From an uncultured delta proteobacterium (GTDB lineage: Bacteria > Myxococcota_A > Polyangia > Polyangiales > Polyangiaceae), in contig CAVOKF010000001.1 of NCBI GenBank assembly GCA_963696385.1, forward strand, positions 1 to 64,000: 64,000 nucleotides of DNA. Reading direction: 5' to 3'. The translations under genes were made by a program, and so were the position numbers. Below the pieces are notes generated by a model. The model made no database searches and was not told the origin of the DNA. It worked only from the letters and a program-made list of their open reading frames with translations. Of the stretch, positions 40,610 to 51,109 are shown piece after piece; within the stretch, counting starts at the first letter, position 1, and the number at the start of each line of letters is the position of its first letter.

Positions 40610-41533
40610 ATGAACGAGGTGATTCGCGTGGGAATCGTCGGTGCCGCACTGGCGCTGGCCGGGTGCGTTTCCGAGGGCCAATACGATGCCGCGGTAAAGG
40701 ACCAGCAGCAGGCGCGAGCCGACGCGCAGCGTGCGCATGACGAAGACCAGCAGCGTGCCGCCGATCTGGCCAAAGCCCGTGCTCAGATCGATCAGTTGAA
40801 CGCCTCCATCGAGGACTTGCAGGCGCGCGCCGCCGAGCGCGACAAGGCCTTGGCGAGCGAGCAAGGCAGCGCACGCGAGTTGCGAGCGAAGCTCGACGGC
40901 GCGATCGCCGAGAACGAGCAGCTTCGCAAGGAGCTCGCGCGACTCGGCACGAACGCCGACACGCTGCTCGCCGAGAAAGGCTCGCTGGCGAGCGCGCTCT
41001 CCAATGCGAAGGCGCGTCTCGAGGAGTTGCGCAGGGCCCAAGCGGCGGCGGACGCGCGCGCAGCGCTCTTCAAGCAGCTTGCGCTCAAGTTCCAGAAGAT
41101 GATCGACGCGGGCGAACTGAAGGTTGCGCTTCGCAACGGTCGCATGGTCCTCGAGCTGCCCAACGACGTGTTGTTCGACACCGGACAGACGGCGATCAAG
41201 CCGGCGGGCAAGCAGGCGCTCACGAAAATCGCCGCCGTGCTTCGCACGATCTCGGATCGGCATTTTCAGGTCGCCGGCGACACCGACAACGTCCCCATCG
41301 ACACCCCCCAGTTTCCCTCGAACTGGGAGCTGTCGACCGGGCGCGCGGTGCAGGTCGTGCACTTCCTGCTCGGGCAGGGGATGCGGCCCGATCTGCTCTC
41401 CGCCGCTGGCTACGGTGAGTTCGACCCGGTCGCTTCCAACGAAGCGGCCGATGGACGAGCCCGCAACCGCCGGATCGAAATCACCCTGCAGCCGAACATC
41501 GACGAACTCGTGTCCGTCCCCAAAGGCTCCTGA
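40610..41533 (+). CDS. OmpA/MotB-family lipoprotein with coiled coil
   Basis: LAGC lipobox; LPNDVLFDTG, VAGDTDNVPI, SNWELSTGRA, NRRIEI. Confidence 0.92.
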   Translation: MNEVIRVGIVGAALALAGCVSEGQYDAAVKDQQQARADAQRAHDEDQQRAADLAKARAQIDQLNASIEDLQARAAERDKALASEQGSARELRAKLDGAIAENEQLRKELARLGTNADTLLAEKGSLASALSNAKARLEELRRAQAAADARAALFKQLALKFQKMIDAGELKVALRNGRMVLELPNDVLFDTGQTAIKPAGKQALTKIAAVLRTISDRHFQVAGDTDNVPIDTPQFPSNWELSTGRAVQVVHFLLGQGMRPDLLSAAGYGEFDPVASNEAADGRARNRRIEITLQPNIDELVSVPKGS

Positions 41534-41570
41534 GGGCGGGTTGTTTTCTTAGACTTCGATCACCCGGACC

Positions 41571-41755
41571 ACCCTGAGCGTTCGCGCTGCTTTACGATCA
41601 CCCGCGATACCCTGAGCGTTCGCTCCGCCTCGACTCGCTTCGCTCGCTCGGCTTCGCTCTCGCGGACCCGGCCCGCACGACACGTCGAGGGGAGCGAATG
41701 CCGCTCCCCTCGAGCTCCCCAGCAGGCCCAGCAGGAGACGAGACGGGTACCCGTC
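41571..41755 (+). repeat. REP-like element, copy A (uninterrupted)
   Basis: ccctgagcgttcgctccgcctcgactcgcttcgctcgct..tcgaggggagcg-N5-cgctcccctcga-gctccccagcaggcccagcaggagacgagacgggtacccg; homologous to 43945-44107 and (reversed) 48846-49086. Confidence 0.9.
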
Positions 41756-41896
41756 GAGCGCGAACGAGAGTCCAAAGAGGGAAACCTCGAGAGCCGTTTC
41801 ACCCGCTGCGAGATCCAGGGTGAGCCCCAATCGGTTCGCAGTTCCAGTTACATCGGGGCCAATCGTCCCCAGTCTCAAGCATGCTAACCTCAAGTC

Positions 41897-42157
41897 ATGG
41901 AGAGCGTTGAGATCATCGTCTCCGTGGCGCTTCCGAGTGCCGCTCTCGACCGCGAGCCTCCCGATGCGATCCAACGTCGGTTACGGTTGCTGTGGGCGCT
42001 GGATGAAATTCGGGCGGGGCGTCTCACCCGAGTGCCGGGCGCCCGGTGGCTCGGTCTTTCGCTTGATGACTTGCTGGCGGCGGCGGGTGAGCACGGCCTT
42101 GCCGCGTTCGACTACGAAGCAGACGACTTTCGCTCCGAGCTCGCTTCGCTGACGTGA
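41897..42157 (+). CDS. UPF0175-family antitoxin-like protein
   Basis: GRLT...ARWLGLSLDDLL..AGEHGL..DYEADDFRSEL; coupled to DUF3368-like start. Confidence 0.7.
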   Translation: MESVEIIVSVALPSAALDREPPDAIQRRLRLLWALDEIRAGRLTRVPGARWLGLSLDDLLAAAGEHGLAAFDYEADDFRSELASLT

Positions 42158-42245
42158 TCGTGGTCGCGGACACGACGCCTCTGCTCTATTTGTCGCGCAT
42201 CGGCCGACTGAATATTGCGCAGGCGCTCGACGCGGTTCTGCTGGG
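42154..42245 (+). pseudogene. DUF3368-like PIN toxin cut off at transposon end
   Basis: MIVVADTTPLLYLSRIGRL..; interrupted at 42246 by terminal inverted repeat. Confidence 0.75.
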
Positions 42246-42403
42246 GGGCTTTGCCCATAAAGGCCGCCTCGGCCCGTCTTTTACGGGCAGCGGGCGATCT
42301 TGCCCAGAAAGTCGAGCGATGAACCGAAGCCGCCGATCTGATACGACCATTCTCTATGGCCGAGCCGCTATCGCCGGACAAGGACTGAGCGAGCGGAGTG
42401 CTA

Positions 42404-42769
42404 TCACTTCGACTTACCGGAAGAACTTGGCTGATTTTTCGGCGAAGGAGGCCGGTCGCCGATGATCTCCTCAACTCGGTACAACTCTGACGGAAGGCAC
42501 CGACCGCAGTTGCTCGTTACTGCCGCCTCGCGAGGGAAGCTAACGCCACCTCTATAGAAGTAGGTCGGCTTCGAAAGTCCGAGCACTCGGCCGGTATGGC
42601 TATTGGGGCCAATGGCAAGACACGCTTCTTGCCGTTGCGTACCCGTACCAACGACGACGAGCCACCTATCCGATTGATCCGGATCGCCATCGCGCGCCGG
42701 CATCTTGCGTACAACTATTGCCGGCCGATATTTGTCGGCTTGAACCCAAACGCAATCACCCGGCGCCAA
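42404..42769 (-). CDS. MazF/PemK-like toxin (divergent)
   Basis: PGDCVWVQADKYRPAIVV..WLVVVGT..LGLSKPTYF; TTG start overlapping upstream gene. Confidence 0.55.
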   Translation of the reverse strand: MAPGDCVWVQADKYRPAIVVRKMPARDGDPDQSDRWLVVVGTGTQRQEACLAIGPNSHTGRVLGLSKPTYFYRGGVSFPREAAVTSNCGRCLPSELYRVEEIIGDRPPSPKNQPSSSGKSK

Positions 42770-43514
42770 TGTCCGGGTCACCGAGCGGGGAGTACACATC
42801 CTTGCCGCTGGCGAAGGCTTCGCGGCGCCAGGTCTCGATCTCACCCTGATCGAAAGCGGGCTTCGTTGGTCCCTGCGCAGCCGCAATCAGGTTGGCAAGA
42901 AACTCGTTCACTCCGTCAGCGAGGTGGCGGGCGAGGGCTAGGGCGAGCCACGGTTCGAGCCTCTTCCCCAAGTTGACTGCTCTAAAGACCCCGATGGCTG
43001 CGACGATCGCCTTCGACAGCGCCAACATCGCGCGGCGCATCTCGAGCGGCGCATCGGTGTCGTAAAACATATCAACGGGCGTGTGCGTCGCACGCGCCAT
43101 CTCGCTTGGTGACGCTCGCTGAATCACCGGGACCATGGCCCTCGCAAACGAAGCCATGTGCTCCCACCCTCCGCAAAAAATCTTCATCGGCTCTTCGCCG
43201 AGCGTTCGGCGAAGAGGTGGGCTGAAGCGATCTAAAATCCAGTGACGACGACGCCGCGCCCGCTTGAGGGTCGCTTGGTTGGGCAACGACCTGACCCAGA
43301 ACGACGGGTCGCACGCGACCAGCTCCAATCGCTCCGACAAGTCGTCAACGCTTGACGCCTCCAGAACATTGTCCGCGAACGCATCGAAGTGGCACTGCAA
43401 GGCTCTCGCGGTCGCATTCGCCAAAGCACGGTCGTCCGGTCGCGGCTCGAAGAACCCCAAGAGCAGCGACAGCCCCAAGTTGTCTGCGGCAGCTACAGCG
43501 TTCATCGTCTGCAT
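42756..43514 (-). CDS. Hypothetical 252-aa helical protein, possible antitoxin
   Basis: Long ORF inside element 1, overlapping the MazF-like start. Confidence 0.6.
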   Translation of the reverse strand: MQTMNAVAAADNLGLSLLLGFFEPRPDDRALANATARALQCHFDAFADNVLEASSVDDLSERLELVACDPSFWVRSLPNQATLKRARRRRHWILDRFSPPLRRTLGEEPMKIFCGGWEHMASFARAMVPVIQRASPSEMARATHTPVDMFYDTDAPLEMRRAMLALSKAIVAAIGVFRAVNLGKRLEPWLALALARHLADGVNEFLANLIAAAQGPTKPAFDQGEIETWRREAFASGKDVYSPLGDPDIGAG

Positions 43515-43944
43515 CCGAAGTTCACGTCGTCGTGACCCACCTCAATCATGCGTCCCGCCCGTCGATCGAAGCCGGTGCATGGCGAGCGGAACGACCAGCG
43601 ACGCACTCGTAAATTTTGCCATCGCCATCGCGATTGTCGAGGGCACCGGAACGTACACGCGGTTGGCCGTTGCTATCAAGCGTTACAGAATAGAGCCACT
43701 TTCGCTCAGTGCTACGCCGCGTGCCGCTATATGACCTACGCTTGACGTTACGAATCGGCGCGACGAAAAATGTAAGCCGCAGCGTCCTACACCGCACCGT
43801 GGCGGGAACTCAGCCGGATTTTGTCTACATTGTGGGCGTCCACTAATCATTAGGCTGGACGTCCACTGGTCATACGCCGGTCATACGCGATTTATGGGCA
43901 TCGCATCGATTTTACGGGCAGGTCGCGTTTTATAGGCAAAGCCC

Positions 43945-44107
43945 CCCAGCAGGAGACGAGACGGGTACCCGTGTTGATGCGATCACCCGCGACACCCTGA
44001 GCGTTCGCTCCGCCTCGACTCGCTTCGCTCGCTCCGCTCCGCTCCCGCCGTACCACCGGGGCTCACGTCGAGGGGAGCGAAGGCCGCTCCCCTCGAGCTC
44101 CCCAGCA
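43945..44107 (+). repeat. REP-like element, copy B (tail of one unit + body of next) between the two transposons
   Basis: cccagcaggagacgagacgggtacccg followed by gatcacccgcgacaccctgagcgttcg...gagctccccagca. Confidence 0.9.
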
Positions 44108-44474
44108 GGGCTTTGCCTATAAAACGCGGCCTGCCCAGAAAAGCGGCAAGCTGCCCAGAAAAAGGCGTCGGCCGCGCCGTGTCGATAATCGACAGCAGTA
44201 GCGTGTATTGTCGGACGATGACGCTAAGTGCAACATCGCATCTAGATGTCGGAATAGTTCAATATTTCTGCGGTAAGATGTCGTAGCCATCAATTGCTGC
44301 ACAATTGATCGCCAACTTTCCGCCTACGCGAAATGGCTCAGCTCGGGGTGGTTCGCGAAACCAGGATCACGCGTGGTCATTGGCGATGTTTGAAGCTCCT
44401 GTCGTTCCTGATAGTTGCAGCTCGTCCGATCAAATCTGTGGCGCATGCGTCGATGATAGCTTATTCCATGGACC

Positions 44475-45068
44475 ATGCGATACGAGGTCCTGACAAGAGA
44501 CGGTGTCCGTATAGTGGCGTCGTCTCCAGCCGATGCCGTTGCGTTGGCGAAGGCCGTAGCAGAGGACGAGGCGGCTTCGCAGAAGAAGGCGCGCCGAGCC
44601 GTTAGTGGCTCGGCCAATGGCCACGCGCCGACCGCACCACCGGCTAACCTTTTCGAGAACGAGGACACTGAGGAGTTGAACAGCCTTGGTGCCTCCTCCG
44701 AGGTCAAGCAATACTGGACGAAGCTAAACTTGGCCCAGCGTATGGCGCTGCGTTCGATCATAAGATCTCCGAACGGCGTCGCACTGGAGGAGATTCGTTC
44801 CGCAGCCGACCTTGCGTCTACCCGCGAGACTTCTGTCTTGTTGAGCCAGTGCGCCAGAGTAGCCGGCAAATGTGGGATTAAGCTGGTCCGATCTGGCCAC
44901 GTTCGAGATCCGCGGTGCGCGCGAGCAGCGCACATCCGTCTACTTTCCAGGACCCCTACTTCGCCGGCCGGAGGAAGCACCGACATAGGCCACCAATCCG
45001 CCAGTGGCGGAATTCAGACAAAGAAAAGCCGCGACAACATTAGAGTTTGCGGGCCGGTGGCGAAGTAG
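44475..45068 (+). CDS. Hypothetical protein, possible winged-helix C-terminus
   Basis: YWTKLNLAQRMALRSIIRSPNGVALEEIRSAADL; atypical codon usage. Confidence 0.5.
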   Translation: MRYEVLTRDGVRIVASSPADAVALAKAVAEDEAASQKKARRAVSGSANGHAPTAPPANLFENEDTEELNSLGASSEVKQYWTKLNLAQRMALRSIIRSPNGVALEEIRSAADLASTRETSVLLSQCARVAGKCGIKLVRSGHVRDPRCARAAHIRLLSRTPTSPAGGSTDIGHQSASGGIQTKKSRDNIRVCGPVAK

Positions 45069-45349
45069 GAACGCGTCGGAGCTGCCACTCCGATACGAAT
45101 CGGTGCGATCCCGATCCGGCCCTTTTCACTCAGTTATCGCGGCTTTACGGCCCGGACGGGGTACGGCCGAGACGTTTCGCAGCAGAACGCCTTGTTTCGT
45201 AGCACGCCCTCCGCACGGGCGCTCGAAAACCGCGTGCGTGCGGAGAGGAAAGGTGTGTTGTGCGGTCACATGACCGAACGTTATTACGGATAAGTTGAGA
45301 TCCAAGATGTAATCCGGCCCGGTTCGGCGAAAGCCTTGAGCCGGGCGGT

Positions 45350-45544
45350 TCACTTGTCTGCCTTTCGCTCTGCTTTGGCGGCGCGGATCAGGCGCTCGAC
45401 AGCCCACGCGCTGACAGTGATGCCCGCCGACGAGGCAGCTTCCTTGACGAGCGCGTCTTGGTCCGGCGTCAGCCGAACGCGAAGGAAGACGGTACGCCTT
45501 GCCTCGTCTGGCTTTCGCCGTTCGATCGCCTTGGACTTCGCCAG
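45350..45544 (-). pseudogene. DUF1778/RHH-like DNA-binding protein lacking its start codon
   Basis: (L)AKSKAIERRKPDEARRTVFLRVRLTPDQDALVKEAASSAGITVSAWAVERLIRAAKAE..*; not in the ORF track. Confidence 0.65.
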
Positions 45545-46691
45545 AGCGGCGCGGCTGACGGTTACGTCGTGGACGTCGCGGTCGGCAAGTGCTCATGCCC
45601 CGACCACGAGACGCGGGCGGTCAAGTGCAAGCACCAATGGGCCGTGGAGTTCGTTCAGAAGCAGACGACGATCGAGACGATGACGAACGCGGATGGTACG
45701 TCGACGGTCCGCGAGACGACGCGCGAGGTGCGGGTGAAGTACACCCAGAATTGGCCAGCGTATAACGCAGCCCAGACGACCGAGAAGGAACACGTCGGCC
45801 GGCTTCTGCGCGCGCTTTGTGATGGCATCCAAGAGCCACCGCAGGCGCGTGGTCGCCCTCGTCTGCCGCTCGCCGACGTCGTCCACGCCGCCGCGATGAA
45901 AGTCTACGTTGGCATGTCCGGTCGGCGCGCCTCGACAGACGTCCGGGAATGCGCGGAGAAGGGCTTGATCGCGCACGCCCCGCATTACAACGCCGTGTTT
46001 TCGTATCTCGAACGCGCCGAACTTTTCCCGCTTCTCAAGACGCTAGTGGAAGAGAGCGCGTCGCCGCTCAAAGTGGCAGAGCGGAGCTTCGCCGTCGATT
46101 CGACGGGCTTCGCGACGAGCACGTATGCGCGATGGTTCGATCACAAGTGCGGGCGCGAGATCAAGGAGCAACGCTGGATCAAGTGCCACGCGATGGTCGG
46201 CGTCGCCACGAACGTCGTAACGAGCATTGAAGTGACTGACGGCGCTTCCGCCGATTGCCCGCAGCTGCCGAGGCTCGTCGCCGCGACGGCGCGGAACTTC
46301 ACAATCGCGGAATGTGAGCGCCGACAAAGCGTATCTCGCGCGAGCCAACATCGACGCGATCGAAGCTGTCGGCGCCGTGCCTTACATCCCGTTCAAATCG
46401 AACTCGAAGGGCGACGGTCCCGCAGCGTGGCGCCGAATGTTCGCGCTCTTCACGCTCGAGCGTGAGCGCTTCCTATCGCGCTATCACGCTCGGTCGAACG
46501 TCGAGACGTCGTTCTCAGCGATCAAGCGGCTCTTCGGCGGCGCGGTGCGCGCGAAACTCCCGACGTCGCAGAAGAACGAGGTGCTTCTGAAGTGCCTCGT
46601 GTTCAACCTGACGTGCCTCGTCCACGCGATGCACGAGCTTGGGATCGAACCGACGTTCGGGCCAATCGAGAACGCGAGGTTAGCGTCGTGA
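45542..46691 (+). pseudogene. SWIM zinc-finger + DDE transposase (IS5/IS4-like), 5'-truncated and frameshifted near 46313
   Basis: CSCPDH..CKH SWIM; AVDSTGF, SADKAY, YHARSNVETSFSAIKR; extra T in gcggaaTgtgagc. Confidence 0.88.
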
Positions 46692-46999
46692 GCGACCTGA
46701 CGGAGGATCAGCAGGAGAACGTCCGCGCCGCGCTCCGATTCTTTCGGACGCGATCGGGAAGCTGGGAGCCCATCGGCCGCGCGCTCGGGTTCGGAAAGAT
46801 GACGCTTTCGCTCGTCGCGAGCGGAAACAAGCCCGTCAGCCCGAAGATGGCGTTCCGCGTGGCGAAGCTGGCAGGCGTCGGCGTGGATGACGTGCTCGCC
46901 GGGGAGTTCCCAGCGCCAGGGACGTGCCCGATGTGCGGGTATCACAGAATCAAGGGCGCCGAAGATTTTGGCGGAGCGTTGATCCACGTCGAGACGTAG
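46688..46999 (+). CDS. XRE-like HTH protein with CxxC
   Basis: GTGA coupling to transposase; IGRALGFGKMTLSLVASG..VSPKMAFRVAKLAGVGVDDVL, CPMCG. Confidence 0.75.
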   Translation: MSDLTEDQQENVRAALRFFRTRSGSWEPIGRALGFGKMTLSLVASGNKPVSPKMAFRVAKLAGVGVDDVLAGEFPAPGTCPMCGYHRIKGAEDFGGALIHVET

Positions 47000-47001
47000 C
47001 G

Positions 47002-47544
47002 TTAGTTCGACACCGCACCGCTACCCGGATCAGTGGGCGTGATGGACACGTTTTTAGTGAATTCGCTGATGATTTTGTATTTGCTCTGCAGGCGCCACAA
47101 TGCGATTCGCGCAACCGCATAGTAGCTCGACATGAGAAGGACGCAGAGAACGATGGGCCCAGTAGCCATCGCAAGCACGATCAAGGTCCACGTCCATGGG
47201 GCCAACCGCGAGCACTCCCTCTCGCCGTTGACGGCCGCGCATACCAAGAGCAGGATCAGACCGATCACGCATATGACAGCCAATACGAGACATGTCCGCT
47301 GGCACCACGACGTGCGCCGCTCCAGTTTCGCTGGCACCACTGCAATCTTCGCGGTCTCATTCTGAATGGCCGCCGAGTCGCTCGTGAATCGGTCAAGCAC
47401 GATGGCCCTCAGACCATCGGCCGTGGCGACGAGGGAGGCCCTCACGCGAGCCGTAATAAAGCCTCTATAATGCTCCAAAATTCCGAACGCAAAATTGACC
47501 GCGATACCCGCATCCGCGAGGTGGGTCAGAGATTCGATTCGCAC
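47002..47544 (-). CDS. Membrane protein with two strong TM helices
   Basis: LVLAVICVIGLILLLVCAAV and WTWTLIVLAMATGPIVLCVLLM; lower GC. Confidence 0.7.
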   Translation of the reverse strand: MRIESLTHLADAGIAVNFAFGILEHYRGFITARVRASLVATADGLRAIVLDRFTSDSAAIQNETAKIAVVPAKLERRTSWCQRTCLVLAVICVIGLILLLVCAAVNGERECSRLAPWTWTLIVLAMATGPIVLCVLLMSSYYAVARIALWRLQSKYKIISEFTKNVSITPTDPGSGAVSN

Positions 47545-47591
47545 CCTTCGTCTGCCCCCTCTCGTATGCCAGGGCGTAGCCCGTGCGTGAA

Positions 47592-48197
47592 CTAGATGGC
47601 TCCGGCAACCGGCAGCATAGCTGGATGTGCCATTACAAACGCGCGGTCGAATGTAGAAGCAAGTTCGGACGCCACGCGGGGCTCGTTGAAGTTTGCGATT
47701 GCGGACGTGCTCGAATGATCGGTCTCGAATCTGTACCCGACGCTGTCCATGACAGCGATGTGCTTCGCCGCGTTCGTAGCATATGCGCCACGCGCGAATC
47801 GAACGAGCAAGCCTGTGGATCCGCCATGCAAACTGGTCGCCGCCTTGATTAGCGGGCGCTCCAAGAGATCGGCTAGCGTGTTCTGGATGAGAATCTTCAG
47901 CGTTGCGCCAGGCTTCCTTAGAAATCGCGTGGCCGCCTCAATGAGAAACGGCGCGTTGTACGTGCTTGGCGACAGCGAGCCCGTGAAGATGCGCATGTCA
48001 GATGTTGCGCGTTCGAACATTGCTTCCAGCAGGATGGCCGCATGGATTGGCTTCCCGTTCGGGATGCGTTGGTCGATCTGACCCGTTGCGAGTTTGAAGA
48101 TCAGCTTTCGGTACTCGATGACCTCTGGCGCTTGTAGAGCCTGCGCCATCTCAGCCAGTTCGCGCCGAACCTCCGATGGATCTCGTTCGTGCGCCAT
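47592..48197 (-). CDS. Hypothetical protein with PLD-like/TrmB-sensor-like fold, no canonical HKD
   Basis: FERATSDMRIFTGSL..LKILIQ..HIAVMDSVGYRFE..ANFNEP..A..L...FD; GGGAG RBS. Confidence 0.6.
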   Translation of the reverse strand: MAHERDPSEVRRELAEMAQALQAPEVIEYRKLIFKLATGQIDQRIPNGKPIHAAILLEAMFERATSDMRIFTGSLSPSTYNAPFLIEAATRFLRKPGATLKILIQNTLADLLERPLIKAATSLHGGSTGLLVRFARGAYATNAAKHIAVMDSVGYRFETDHSSTSAIANFNEPRVASELASTFDRAFVMAHPAMLPVAGAI

Positions 48198-48501
48198 TGC
48201 TCCCAATCCTCTCTGCGTCCGCCGATCGCGAACGGTTTGCTTATACCATGCCATACGGCCGTCAAGATGCCCCCAAGAAGGGGGCCCATCGCGCGTAGCA
48301 ATGTTCGAGCGCACTTAGCTGAAAAGGCCAAGTAATTGAACATTTTACGCGCATAGATCGCAATCGCATCCTTCTGGATGCTGAGGCGCCCGGCGCGCCC
48401 GGCCGCGCGAGGTCATCCGGACCAACGGCGCGCCAAAGAAGGCTGGGTAGCGACCCGATCCGCGACGAGGTTCGTGATCGGCCACTTCTGAAATTGCTCA
48501 G

Positions 48502-48699
48502 TCACGGACCTGGAAGGCGACGGTCGATCTCGTCGGCAAACTCCTTCAGCTTGCCCTGGACGATCGGGTTCGTATGGTCATCCTTCATCTTGTCTAGCTG
48601 ACAATGCATCCGCAGCGACATGAAGCCGGCCAGCAGATCGCTCGTCTTGAACGTCCGAGGGTCCCACGCGGATATCGTCTTCTTGTATTCTTCGCTCAT
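48502..48699 (-). CDS. Small hypothetical protein
   Basis: 65-aa ORF inside element 2. Confidence 0.4.
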   Translation of the reverse strand: MSEEYKKTISAWDPRTFKTSDLLAGFMSLRMHCQLDKMKDDHTNPIVQGKLKEFADEIDRRLPGP

Positions 48700-48845
48700 C
48701 GTGCGAGCGTACCCGTGGGAATGATTTCGGCCTCCTCCACCGGCAGCATCTGCCGCGAATCGCTCCTCGGTCGATCAGCCTTTCTGGGCAAAATCGCCCG
48801 CTGCCCGTAAAAGACGGGCGGAGGCGGCCTTTATGGGCAAAGCCC

Positions 48846-49086
48846 CTGCTGGGCCTGCTGGGGAGCTCGAGGGGAGCGGCATTCGCTCCCCTCGACGTGT
48901 AGCGGGCCCCGGTACGGCGGGAGCGGAGCCGAGCGAGCGAAGCGAGTCGAGGCGGAGCGAACGCTCAGGGTGTCGCGGGTGATCGCAAGGCCGTGCGAAC
49001 GCTCAGGGTGTCGCGGGTGATCGCAAGGCCGTGCGAACGCTCAGGGTGTCGCGGGTGATCGCAAGGCCGTGCGAACGCTCAGGGTG
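48846..49086 (-). repeat. REP-like element, copy C (reverse) with 38-bp tandem expansion
   Basis: gcgaacgctcagggtgtcgcgggtgatcgcaaggccgt x3 at 48957, 48995, 49033 plus partial; no spacers. Confidence 0.9.
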
Positions 49087-51109
49087 AGCCGGGTGACCTG
49101 GGACTTAGCGCCACCCCGCGGAAGTATTCCGTGCCGCCCGCGCTGGCGACGGCGACGACGCTCGATGTCCCGTTCCAGGGATTGGACACGCCGTCGTCCG
49201 TGAATACGGCAATTCGGTTGGGAATCTCGGCGGCCGTGGTCGCGATGAGCGTGACCTGCGAGCTGCCGGTCTTCAACCCTGCAAGACCTCGAAAGCCGAC
49301 CGCCGCCGCTCCGCCGTCGGCCGACGGCAGCGTCAGCGTCGCAGTTTGCGTCCACGTCCCTGCGACGAGGGAGAATCGTGCGATCCCCAGGGCCTGACCG
49401 CTGACGAGTGTGTCGTCGGCGACGTACAGGGTGTCCGGCCCTGAGCCGCTTGCCCTCAGGTTGACGAAGACGAATTGCCAGGGGCTCGCCGACGTCGACG
49501 ACACGGTCGGTAGGCCCGGCAGTGTGGCGAGCGCCGGCGAGCCGCCGTCGGGCAAACCCGCACCGACCGAGAACACTTCGCCGGCCGTCGTGTCGCCGCT
49601 GCCGTAGAGCTGACTGTCGTAAATGGTCAGCAGGCGGACCGCGGTCGGGTTGAGCATCATGCCGTCGACGACGCCGAACGGGATGTACCAGATGCCACCG
49701 GTCGTTCCTCCGTCGACCGTGCCACCGAGACCGCCCACCCAGAAAGAAGTCCCGTCGGCCGTGACGGAGCTGCGGATGCTGTTCGCACCGTGGAATGCGG
49801 CACTCGAGAATTGCGTCGAGGTGTCCACGTTTCCGGCCGAGTCGATGCGTGCGACGACGATCGTATCCGCCGAATTGGCGGGATTGGCCGTGCCGAGCGC
49901 GGCGTTGTAGCCGGCCATGGAGAGGTACCGGCCGTCCTGCGATCGGGACAGGCCTGCAATCGCAGCGATTCCAGGCATCGTGAGCAGGTCCTGTCCGGCA
50001 TCGGGGACTCCCGTTGGCAGTGCGACGGGGGCCCCCACGAGTCCGCCATCGGACACGAGGCGCTGCTCGATGAAGACGGGGGCCGCGACGGCCGTCAGGA
50101 CTCCGCCGTCGGTCGCACCGATTCGCACGACGTCGAACGTGAACGGAACGCAGGCTCCGGCGCCGTTGCAGATGTCGCCCGCCCCGCACGACGTTCCCTC
50201 GGCCGTCTCGGCAACGCCGCACAGACCCCCGGTACAGGTCGGGACCGAGCAGATCGTGTCTTGCCCGGGACAGTCCGACGCCACAGCGCACTGGGGCTCG
50301 CAGGCGATCGTGGCGGACAGTGAAGTGAATGCCACACCCGTACACGCACCACTATCGACCAGGCCGATGCTCACGGTCACGGTCACCGTGGTGCCCGGAG
50401 TCGAGCATAGGAACTCCGGCGCCAGGGACGTAGCGCCCGGCCCGCCGTCGACGGGGTTCACGAAGCTGCCGCCGGTCGGCGGAGTCACGCTCCATTCGAC
50501 GGTCGAGGGGGCGCTGGCCAGGACGCCGAGCTGCGCGCCCTGGCCGACCGCGAGTGCGGCCGGATTGATTGAAAAGGAGGCGATGGCGGGGCAGAGGATG
50601 GGGGGCTGGTTCACCAGGATGACGCCGGCGTCGACCGCGAACGAGCCGGTCTGGATGTCGGCGTTGAGGCTGGCGTCGGTCGGAACGGTACAGGTGACGA
50701 GGAGGGCGACGTTCGTGATCTGACCCGCCACGACCCCGAATGGGTTCGAGGATCCCGCGCAAGGATCACCCTCGCTGTCGACGCCGAAAACGGAAATCGT
50801 GTAGCCGGATCCCGCAGCGATGCCTCCGGCGACGAATTCGACCGATTGTGCGTCGCCGATCGGTTCGACTCCGCTGTACGAGTTCGGTCCCGAGATCGTC
50901 CAACCCAGCGACGCCAAGGTGACCTGGGTGCCGATCGTCAAAGTCGCACCGACCGCCCCGGTATCGCCTCCGAGGCCCGGGTGGCCGCTGCCGGTCGTGC
51001 CCGTCGGATTGCCTCGATCCGGGGTCCCTTCGCGTGGGCTCGAACAGGCGAGAAACAACGCCCCTGCCATCATCAGCGAAGCGAAGAAGACCTTGGCGAG
51101 TCGTGTCAT
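49079..51109 (-). CDS. Large lipoprotein with Cys-rich repeat and beta-rich C-terminal domain
   Basis: MTRLAKVFFASLMMAGALFLAC lipobox; C..ASDCP..C..PTC..G.C..GTSC..CNGAGAC. Confidence 0.8.
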   Translation of the reverse strand: MTRLAKVFFASLMMAGALFLACSSPREGTPDRGNPTGTTGSGHPGLGGDTGAVGATLTIGTQVTLASLGWTISGPNSYSGVEPIGDAQSVEFVAGGIAAGSGYTISVFGVDSEGDPCAGSSNPFGVVAGQITNVALLVTCTVPTDASLNADIQTGSFAVDAGVILVNQPPILCPAIASFSINPAALAVGQGAQLGVLASAPSTVEWSVTPPTGGSFVNPVDGGPGATSLAPEFLCSTPGTTVTVTVSIGLVDSGACTGVAFTSLSATIACEPQCAVASDCPGQDTICSVPTCTGGLCGVAETAEGTSCGAGDICNGAGACVPFTFDVVRIGATDGGVLTAVAAPVFIEQRLVSDGGLVGAPVALPTGVPDAGQDLLTMPGIAAIAGLSRSQDGRYLSMAGYNAALGTANPANSADTIVVARIDSAGNVDTSTQFSSAAFHGANSIRSSVTADGTSFWVGGLGGTVDGGTTGGIWYIPFGVVDGMMLNPTAVRLLTIYDSQLYGSGDTTAGEVFSVGAGLPDGGSPALATLPGLPTVSSTSASPWQFVFVNLRASGSGPDTLYVADDTLVSGQALGIARFSLVAGTWTQTATLTLPSADGGAAAVGFRGLAGLKTGSSQVTLIATTAAEIPNRIAVFTDDGVSNPWNGTSSVVAVASAGGTEYFRGVALSPRSPGSP

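Follow-up and report, generated by a model that had tools for sequence, protein, structure and literature searches.

The window analysed here is a stretch of 64,000 nucleotides from an uncultured delta proteobacterium of the Polyangiaceae (GCA_963696385.1, contig CAVOKF010000001.1, positions 1 to 64,000), in which two mobile elements with shared ends lie close together among copies of a host hairpin repeat. Our favored account is that two IS903-like cargo transposons entered neighboring copies of this repeat in separate insertions, and that recombination between their inverted ends then probably flipped the DNA between them. What appears to be new is the family to which they belong, a SWIM-fused family of cargo elements related to the IS5 family of insertion sequences (IS); the locus itself is an ordinary rearrangement scar, and the bias of the family in its choice of sites is moderate and could come from targeting or from survival.

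Element ends and crossed duplications

Four element ends lie at the locus in the order L-R / R-L; GGGCTTTGCCYATAAA has no other exact match anywhere in the genome (G000, 6.9 Mb). The original prediction had located all four with their flanks correctly, as it had the uninterrupted site in repeat copy A, but it took the ends to begin with GGGCTTTG. In 58 complete relatives, collected as described below, the family end is GGCTTTG and begins at GG, a third G being present at both ends in 12 relatives, at a single end in 20 and absent from both in 26. This places the elements at 42247-43943 and 44109-48844, and a junction that had been described as one G short is not short in this register. The alternative register, GGG ends with an 8-bp duplication, was rejected on the basis of the same relatives, whose duplications are 9 bp (n = 41) or 10 bp (n = 17) long and all different in sequence. 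Family ends extend over ~60-65 bp and contain internal repeats. The L1 and L2 ends agree at 58/60 positions and R1 and R2 at 44/60, with the first 20 identical; R1 and R2 match an end of another genome at 44-45/60 and are thus no closer to each other, and the two elements have nothing but their ends in common. A weaker fifth end is present in G000 at C8:702177, an R-type orphan fused directly to a helix-turn-helix (HTH) remnant and abutting a (GGGGTC)n run, for which no partner was found within 28 kb. A further HTH remnant lies in G000 at C6:236021.

As it stands, neither element sits in a normal target duplication, because its own two flanks are reverse-complementary and, read as direct repeats of 8-11 bp, give at most 4 matches, a point that the original prediction does not mention. 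Paired crosswise, the flank of L1 matches that of R2 at 9/9 positions (as the reverse complement) and the flank of R1 matches that of L2 at 9/10, while the D side joined to the tail after R1 rebuilds the uninterrupted site of copy A. The spacer at 43944..44108 is inverted relative to the outer flanks, and reversing either the spacer (through the R ends) or the whole interior (through the L ends) leaves both elements in tandem minus-strand copies that face the plus-strand copy A. The four junctions, previously counted as separate cases, thus reduce to two insertion events. A PIN/DUF3368 gene is cut at about codon 30 by the L1 junction; where the window has VLLG, its homologues have VLIP or VLVP, so the G run is repeat-derived and the junction does not count as an independent hit. 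No remainder of the gene was seen beside the other three ends.

Short-read contigs from four soil runs of one study, possibly the source sample and therefore a check on the assembly only, cover L1 fully (42041-42594) and extend gap-free beyond R1, R2 and L2 by 20, 27 and 19 bases, fewer than the 31 bases required to count a junction as bridged. The present flank was seen at all four ends; no alternative joint and no empty or unflipped allele was seen in these contigs, which cannot show absence.

The octamer CCCAGCAG beside the ends is the 3' tip of a ~120-bp host repeat with a 12-bp hairpin stem, present in 38 copies in G000 and matched in 24 of the 31 genomes of the genus. It occurs 304 times in the genome and abuts element ends at this locus only; CCCCAGCAG occurs at 92 sites in G000, 24 of them after the repeat hairpin. 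That the octamer is host repeat DNA, as first proposed, is borne out, and its candidacy as part of the element end was rejected, as it ends most host repeat copies and is absent from the ends of the relatives. With many intergenic copies of a palindrome, clustered in tandem and in inverted order, the repeat resembles repetitive extragenic palindromic (REP) sequences and bacterial interspersed mosaic elements (BIMEs). No match to PF01797, the Y1 transposase RAYT, was found in G000, which is 96% complete, and we therefore call the repeat REP-like only. An empty repeat allele, named as a check in the original prediction, was found in G003, where the flanking genes are ~90% identical: ompA is followed by 57 bp and then by a single minus-strand repeat copy closest to copy D, and 41534-48853 is absent. 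The repeat is therefore older than the elements. Of the 38 copies, D stands nearest to copy C (score 114, against 99 for the next), and the rebuilt arrangement, a plus copy opposite two minus copies in tandem, recurs twice elsewhere in the genome (C8 65523 with 66219/66413; C8 281008 with 281855/281981).

Table 1. Features of the locus (positions in the window)
Feature	Position	Strand	Remarks
OmpA-domain gene, left host boundary	40610..41533	+	orthologue in G003 precedes the empty site
Hairpin repeat copy A, uninterrupted, 9-bp tip doubled	41557..41755	+	hairpin 41685-41713
UPF0175 antitoxin-like gene	41897..42157	+	E 5e-6, just under cut-off
PIN/DUF3368 toxin-like gene, first ~30 codons	42154..42243	+	intact 163-aa homologues in G008, G015
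9-bp duplication copy, CCCCAGCAG on minus strand	42238..42246	-	partner 44100-44108
Element 1, 1697 bp, without transposase	42247..43943	.	L end 42247-42311, R end ~43885-43943
PemK/MazF-like toxin candidate, lead only	42407..42778	-	feature score 0.92; PF02452 on 29% of that cluster
252-aa gene, no known family, overlaps PemK-like gene	42756..43514	-	4 homologues, best 80%
Spacer, 165 bp: duplication copy 43944-43953, repeat tail, copy C body, duplication copy 44100-44108	43944..44108	+	
Element 2, 4736 bp	44109..48844	+	R end from 44109, L end 48780-48844
Orphan open reading frame	44475..45068	+	3' frame unsafe
tRNA-like gene, anticodon loop irregular	45051..45123	+	RF00005, 44 bits vs cut-off 29
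NikA-like ribbon-helix-helix gene, start lost at fusion with transposase gene	45350..45530	-	E 1e-7
SWIM-DDE transposase pseudogene	45536..46691	+	~27 N-terminal codons gone; frameshift near 46313
Small HTH-like gene	46688..46999	+	conserved 3' of transposase in myxobacterial relatives; weak HigA match
Membrane-protein cargo	47002..47544	-	no family above cut-off
DUF7931 cargo gene	47592..48314	-	E 3.6e-9
10-bp duplication copy	48845..48854	-	9/10 match to 43944-43953
Repeat copy D body plus 38-bp tandem units	48845..49096	-	ancestral copy, present at G003 empty site

Inverted repeat copies were also seen to enclose small genes, at 41557-42243 of the window (UPF0175-PIN), C8 65523-66413, C8 281008-281981 and C5 454771-455715, hinting that the hairpin repeat itself may carry cargo. 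The 9-bp tip is doubled in copy A (41717-41735 of the window) and copy D as well as at C5 1001586 and C8 281008 of G000, with looser doublings in other copies; such a doubled tip could be an old excision footprint.

History of the locus and its alternatives

The history that we propose begins with a minus-strand repeat copy between ompA and the next gene, the state seen in G003 and presumably that of the ancestor. The site would then have expanded to hold a plus copy, two minus copies in tandem and a toxin-antitoxin pair, after which the SWIM-DDE transposase, intact at that time or acting in trans, would have inserted an element into each of the two minus copies, with the cut on both occasions one base ahead of CCCAGCAG and staggers of 9 bp and 10 bp. 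Recombination through one of the inverted pairs of ends, L with L or R with R, would have reversed the spacer relative to the outer flanks, and judging from the closer match of L1 to L2 (58/60) than of R1 to R2 (44/60) the L-L route seems slightly likelier than the R-R route. The decay that would close this sequence of events is visible in the window, in a truncated PIN gene and in a transposase gene that lacks its start and carries a frameshift; the locus is therefore now a relic. We favor separate insertions because the elements share only their ends and R1 and R2 are no closer to each other than to the end of another genome. Several points weigh against this account. The single mismatch of the 9/10 duplication is the base next to R1. 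The flank of L1 runs into the PIN gene and not into a repeat tail, which calls for one more deletion. Neither a strain with a single element nor one in the unflipped state was found, and the near-identity of L1 and L2 could stem from duplication instead of separate arrival.

Duplication is at the heart of the first alternative, in which the element in copy D hopped replicatively into copy C of the same molecule, with duplication and spacer inversion in one event, and its interior and R end were later replaced by those of a family member. The flank pattern is as described for intramolecular transposition in trans by He et al. 2015 (PMC4471558), who also cite such activity for IS903B, and the 58/60 match of L1 and L2 is in keeping with it. 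We nevertheless consider this unlikely: from a replicative hop one would expect the same element twice, but the interiors have no sequence in common and the R ends agree at only 44/60, so that it also needs a double exchange, with ~20 bp of homology on one side.

A different possibility is that this one transposase lineage reads CCCAGCAG as its target, given that both insertions cut one base before the octamer, in copy D before the second of two tandem octamers. These are two neighboring events, few and not independent, and the nearest intact relatives (~70% identical protein) used CCGCGCCGT and CCTCCGCGG. With the octamer so frequent in the genome and abutted by ends only here, and with another flank at the weaker fifth end of G000, we regard a lineage-specific target as improbable. 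It is more doubtful still that the whole L1-L2 block entered copy D as a composite transposon with GGG ends and an 8-bp duplication. In the GGG register the outer flanks form a perfect direct 8-mer and the inner flanks a perfect direct 9-mer, but with the GG ends of the family the outer flanks match at only 4/9 or 8/10 positions, and 8-bp duplications occur in 0/58 relatives. Moreover, the closest relatives of the spacer are the local copies D and A, so the spacer was not brought from elsewhere. Least credible is an assembly error across the inverted repeats, for although at least one probable one-base error lies nearby (44883) and contig coverage past three of the four junctions falls short of 31 bases, each of the four ends appears in the contigs with its present flank and 19-27 bases suffice to separate the two states.

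Within element 2, the transposase gene, which encodes SWIM and DDE_Tnp_1 domains with PF01609 in both of its pieces, has lost ~27 N-terminal codons and is fused to the divergent NikA-like gene. Both breaks are covered without gaps by the short-read contigs, and no second transposase copy was found in G000. The intact transposase of an active transposon is therefore absent at the locus, through 5' deletion and frameshift; the original prediction held as regards a cargo-moving SWIM-DDE family and a unit without transposase, and failed as regards an intact transposase in the window. Element 2 otherwise contains the HTH-like gene, the DUF7931 gene, the membrane protein and the tRNA-like gene. Element 1, which has no transposase, contains the PemK-like candidate and the overlapping 252-aa orphan, a possible antitoxin. 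No Pfam PemK match was obtained for the longer reading of the 42407..42778 frame, PADLOC returned nothing below E 0.03 for 7 window proteins (the PemK-like candidate had no match), and the cargo of element 1 was found in 0/220 family genomes. The predicted defense-like island is thus weak at the locus itself and fits the cargo of the relatives. Position 44883 is a probable one-base assembly insertion, the base being absent from the contigs of 3/4 soil runs, which makes the 3' frame of the orphan reading frame at 44475..45068 unsafe. A promoter and terminator scan gave matches at chance level only.

A wider family and its choice of sites

Transposase relatives were found in 7/61 close genomes, 17/401 genomes of the order and 8/401 of the phylum (G000 included in these three counts), in 9/351 and 22/301 genomes of two other classes, and at 79 metagenome loci and on 1 viral contig; the unpublished genomes G010 and G027 are counted only as rows in the genome tallies. 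A first set of 108 loci with a transposase match held 33 with exact GGCTTTG at both ends and an abutting direct repeat, reduced to 31 by removal of two duplicates; two more pairs that lacked such ends were left out. A second set, of 40 loci and with one mismatch in the end allowed, yielded 27 further elements, for the total of 58, many loci without a complete element being short contigs. The elements have a median size of 4366 bp (range 1.1-9.5 kb). Intact members exist, for example G007 and L131. Restriction-type cargo is common: a domain scan covering 103 of the 172 open reading frames of the first 31 elements placed DNA methyltransferase domains in 8 elements and Mrr, Fic plus Panacea, HNH and NYN in 1 each. 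Nine of the 58 relatives have tRNA-like genes in ARAGORN (L174, L175, L189, L279, L282, L285, L291, L302 and L252), 8 of them on the transposase strand and ending 132-346 bases upstream of the transposase, with varied and sometimes mismatched anticodons; an Rfam scan adds one in L187.

Four miniature units of 88-202 bp (L001, L072, L107 and L113) have GGCTTTG ends and 9-bp duplications, which suggests that derivatives without a transposase move; those of L001 and L072 are the same unit at two sites in one genome. A 16-mer scan of the genome collection (7/64 parts, 120 loci) was set aside as mostly chance, with 7 units that had paired ends and a duplication. Plasmid and phage collections gave only ordinary IS5-family matches of ~29% identity, none covering 80% of the query. 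A search of titles and abstracts, with most subscription journals outside its reach, returned no description of SWIM-fused IS5-like cargo elements. These loci would form a broad, apparently unnamed family of IS903-like SWIM-transposase cargo elements.

The 8-bp target CCCAGCAG of the original prediction does not survive comparison with the family: 0/58 duplications fall within one mismatch of it. Tabulating the flanks of the relatives, as had been proposed, gave varied duplications and no octamer, and the fifth end in G000 stands at (GGGGTC)n. The octamer joined to GGCTTTG occurs 7 times elsewhere in 70 related genomes, never with end structure, and G017 has the same repeat family in its genome, yet its element sits elsewhere. 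Fixed targeting of safe REP sites is likewise not seen, and what stands of that idea is a ~2.4-fold bias to repeats and hairpins. Among 49 testable sites of the 58 (3 stacked and 6 with short flanks were excluded), 16 targets fall within a repeated 14-mer or a stem of 7 bp or longer, where intergenic positions would give 6.8 by expectation (p 0.0004); taken by itself, the second set, which was collected afterwards, gave 8/24 against 3.1 (p 0.006), and hairpins alone were marginal (9 against 4.9, p 0.05). Left and right flanks are slightly more complementary than shuffled pairs (3.38/10 against 2.62/10 positions, p 0.0005), owing to a few hairpin sites, and no symmetric target consensus emerged from 55 sites. 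Flank look-ups showed multi-copy targets for three elements, which were chosen for their repeated look and stand outside the bias count. Caution is due here: the intergenic control used a crude ORF caller, the sampled hosts are partly related, whole-site folding gave no general signal (median percentile 0.50; 4/29 in the top 5%), and survival of harmless insertions, with selection against those that break genes, could be the source of the site bias without any targeting.

Different sister elements are stacked across one identical 9-bp duplication in 3/58 cases (L281, L283 and L313), the pair at L313 having ends that are 98% identical and a shared core that is 89% identical. In two different genomes, the related elements L282 (near 11228) and L285 (near 10684) directly abut the same CTGTGGAAAA motif 3' of hflX with different duplications, a motif that we take to resemble a DnaA box. 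Target choice in the family is likely loose and biased to repeated, palindromic or protein-bound non-coding DNA, with no 8-base code. Guidance by host proteins has been reported for IS903, with 19/32 insertions in H-NS-bound DNA (bioRxiv 10.1101/2024.02.16.580519), and for the IS1202 family, which inserts beside XerC sites according to PMC10132070. Because two elements cut the same repeat base, 3/58 are stacked and two abut CTGTGGAAAA, we tentatively raise a further possibility, that the SWIM-finger transposase finds and re-uses host landmarks (hairpin repeats, protein-bound motifs, old insertion points) and so builds arrays of different defense-cargo elements where they do no harm, something that Tn7-like elements accomplish by means of several proteins; the locus may then be such an array after inversion.

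Relation to known systems

The octamer-target idea can be dropped, which spares a false lead. What stays are single-transposase elements with restriction, toxin-antitoxin and tRNA passengers and a measurable lean to repeats and re-used sites. Should that lean reflect targeting and not survival, these elements would offer a compact route to defense-island formation, with the SWIM finger as the obvious part to examine, and the intact members make the targeting question testable.

The closest likeness is to the IS903 group of the IS5 family. ISGNB1-1, which we take to be a member of this group and whose record says IS5-like only, aligns with the window transposase at 30% identity, including the D-D-E and YHxRSxVET motifs, and the best NCBIfam model, NF033579, scored 3 intact relatives at 139.9, 120.6 and 107.6 bits, all of them under its cut-off of 140. 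Terminal inverted repeats that start with GGCT(T/C)TG are shared (GGCTTTG here), as is the 9-bp duplication (41/58), which PMC3281130 tabulates for Paracoccus elements of the IS903 group. The elements described here differ in an extra ~90-residue N-terminal region with the SWIM finger, in a median of ~4.4 kb with passenger genes as against ~1.05 kb with a transposase gene only, in ends of ~60-65 bp with internal repeats, and in 10-bp duplications in 17/58. From their sequences they appear to work like the IS903 group, and we do not file them as members because size and gene content differ.

Like the REP-targeting IS (IS1397, ISKpn1, IS621, ISPsy8, ISPpu9/10 and ISRm22), the two elements share a fixed insertion point in a palindromic intergenic repeat. 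For ISPsy8, ISPpu9/10 and ISRm22 PMC1525189 places every copy in REPs, a feature absent here, where about one-third of sites lie in any repeat or hairpin (16/49); it also reports a partial REP association for ISNm1106, of the IS5 family, and swapped flanks for ISRm22, attributed to recombination. Inverted elements with inverted duplication copies are likewise a product of IS26-type intramolecular inversion (PMC4471558), and conversion accompanies recombination between 23-bp IS ends (PMC3004938); the flanking elements here differ from both cases in not being copies of one another. Finally, the family has the IS-like ends, single transposase, passengers and flanking duplication by which transporter IS (tIS) or mobile insertion cassettes (MIC) are defined in the TnCentral preprint and PMC3281130, together with transposase-less units that have the same ends. 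The preprint confines tIS to the IS1595 and IS66 families, to which PMC10132070 adds three IS1202 cases; here, by contrast, passengers are apparently the rule, and in an IS5-like lineage.

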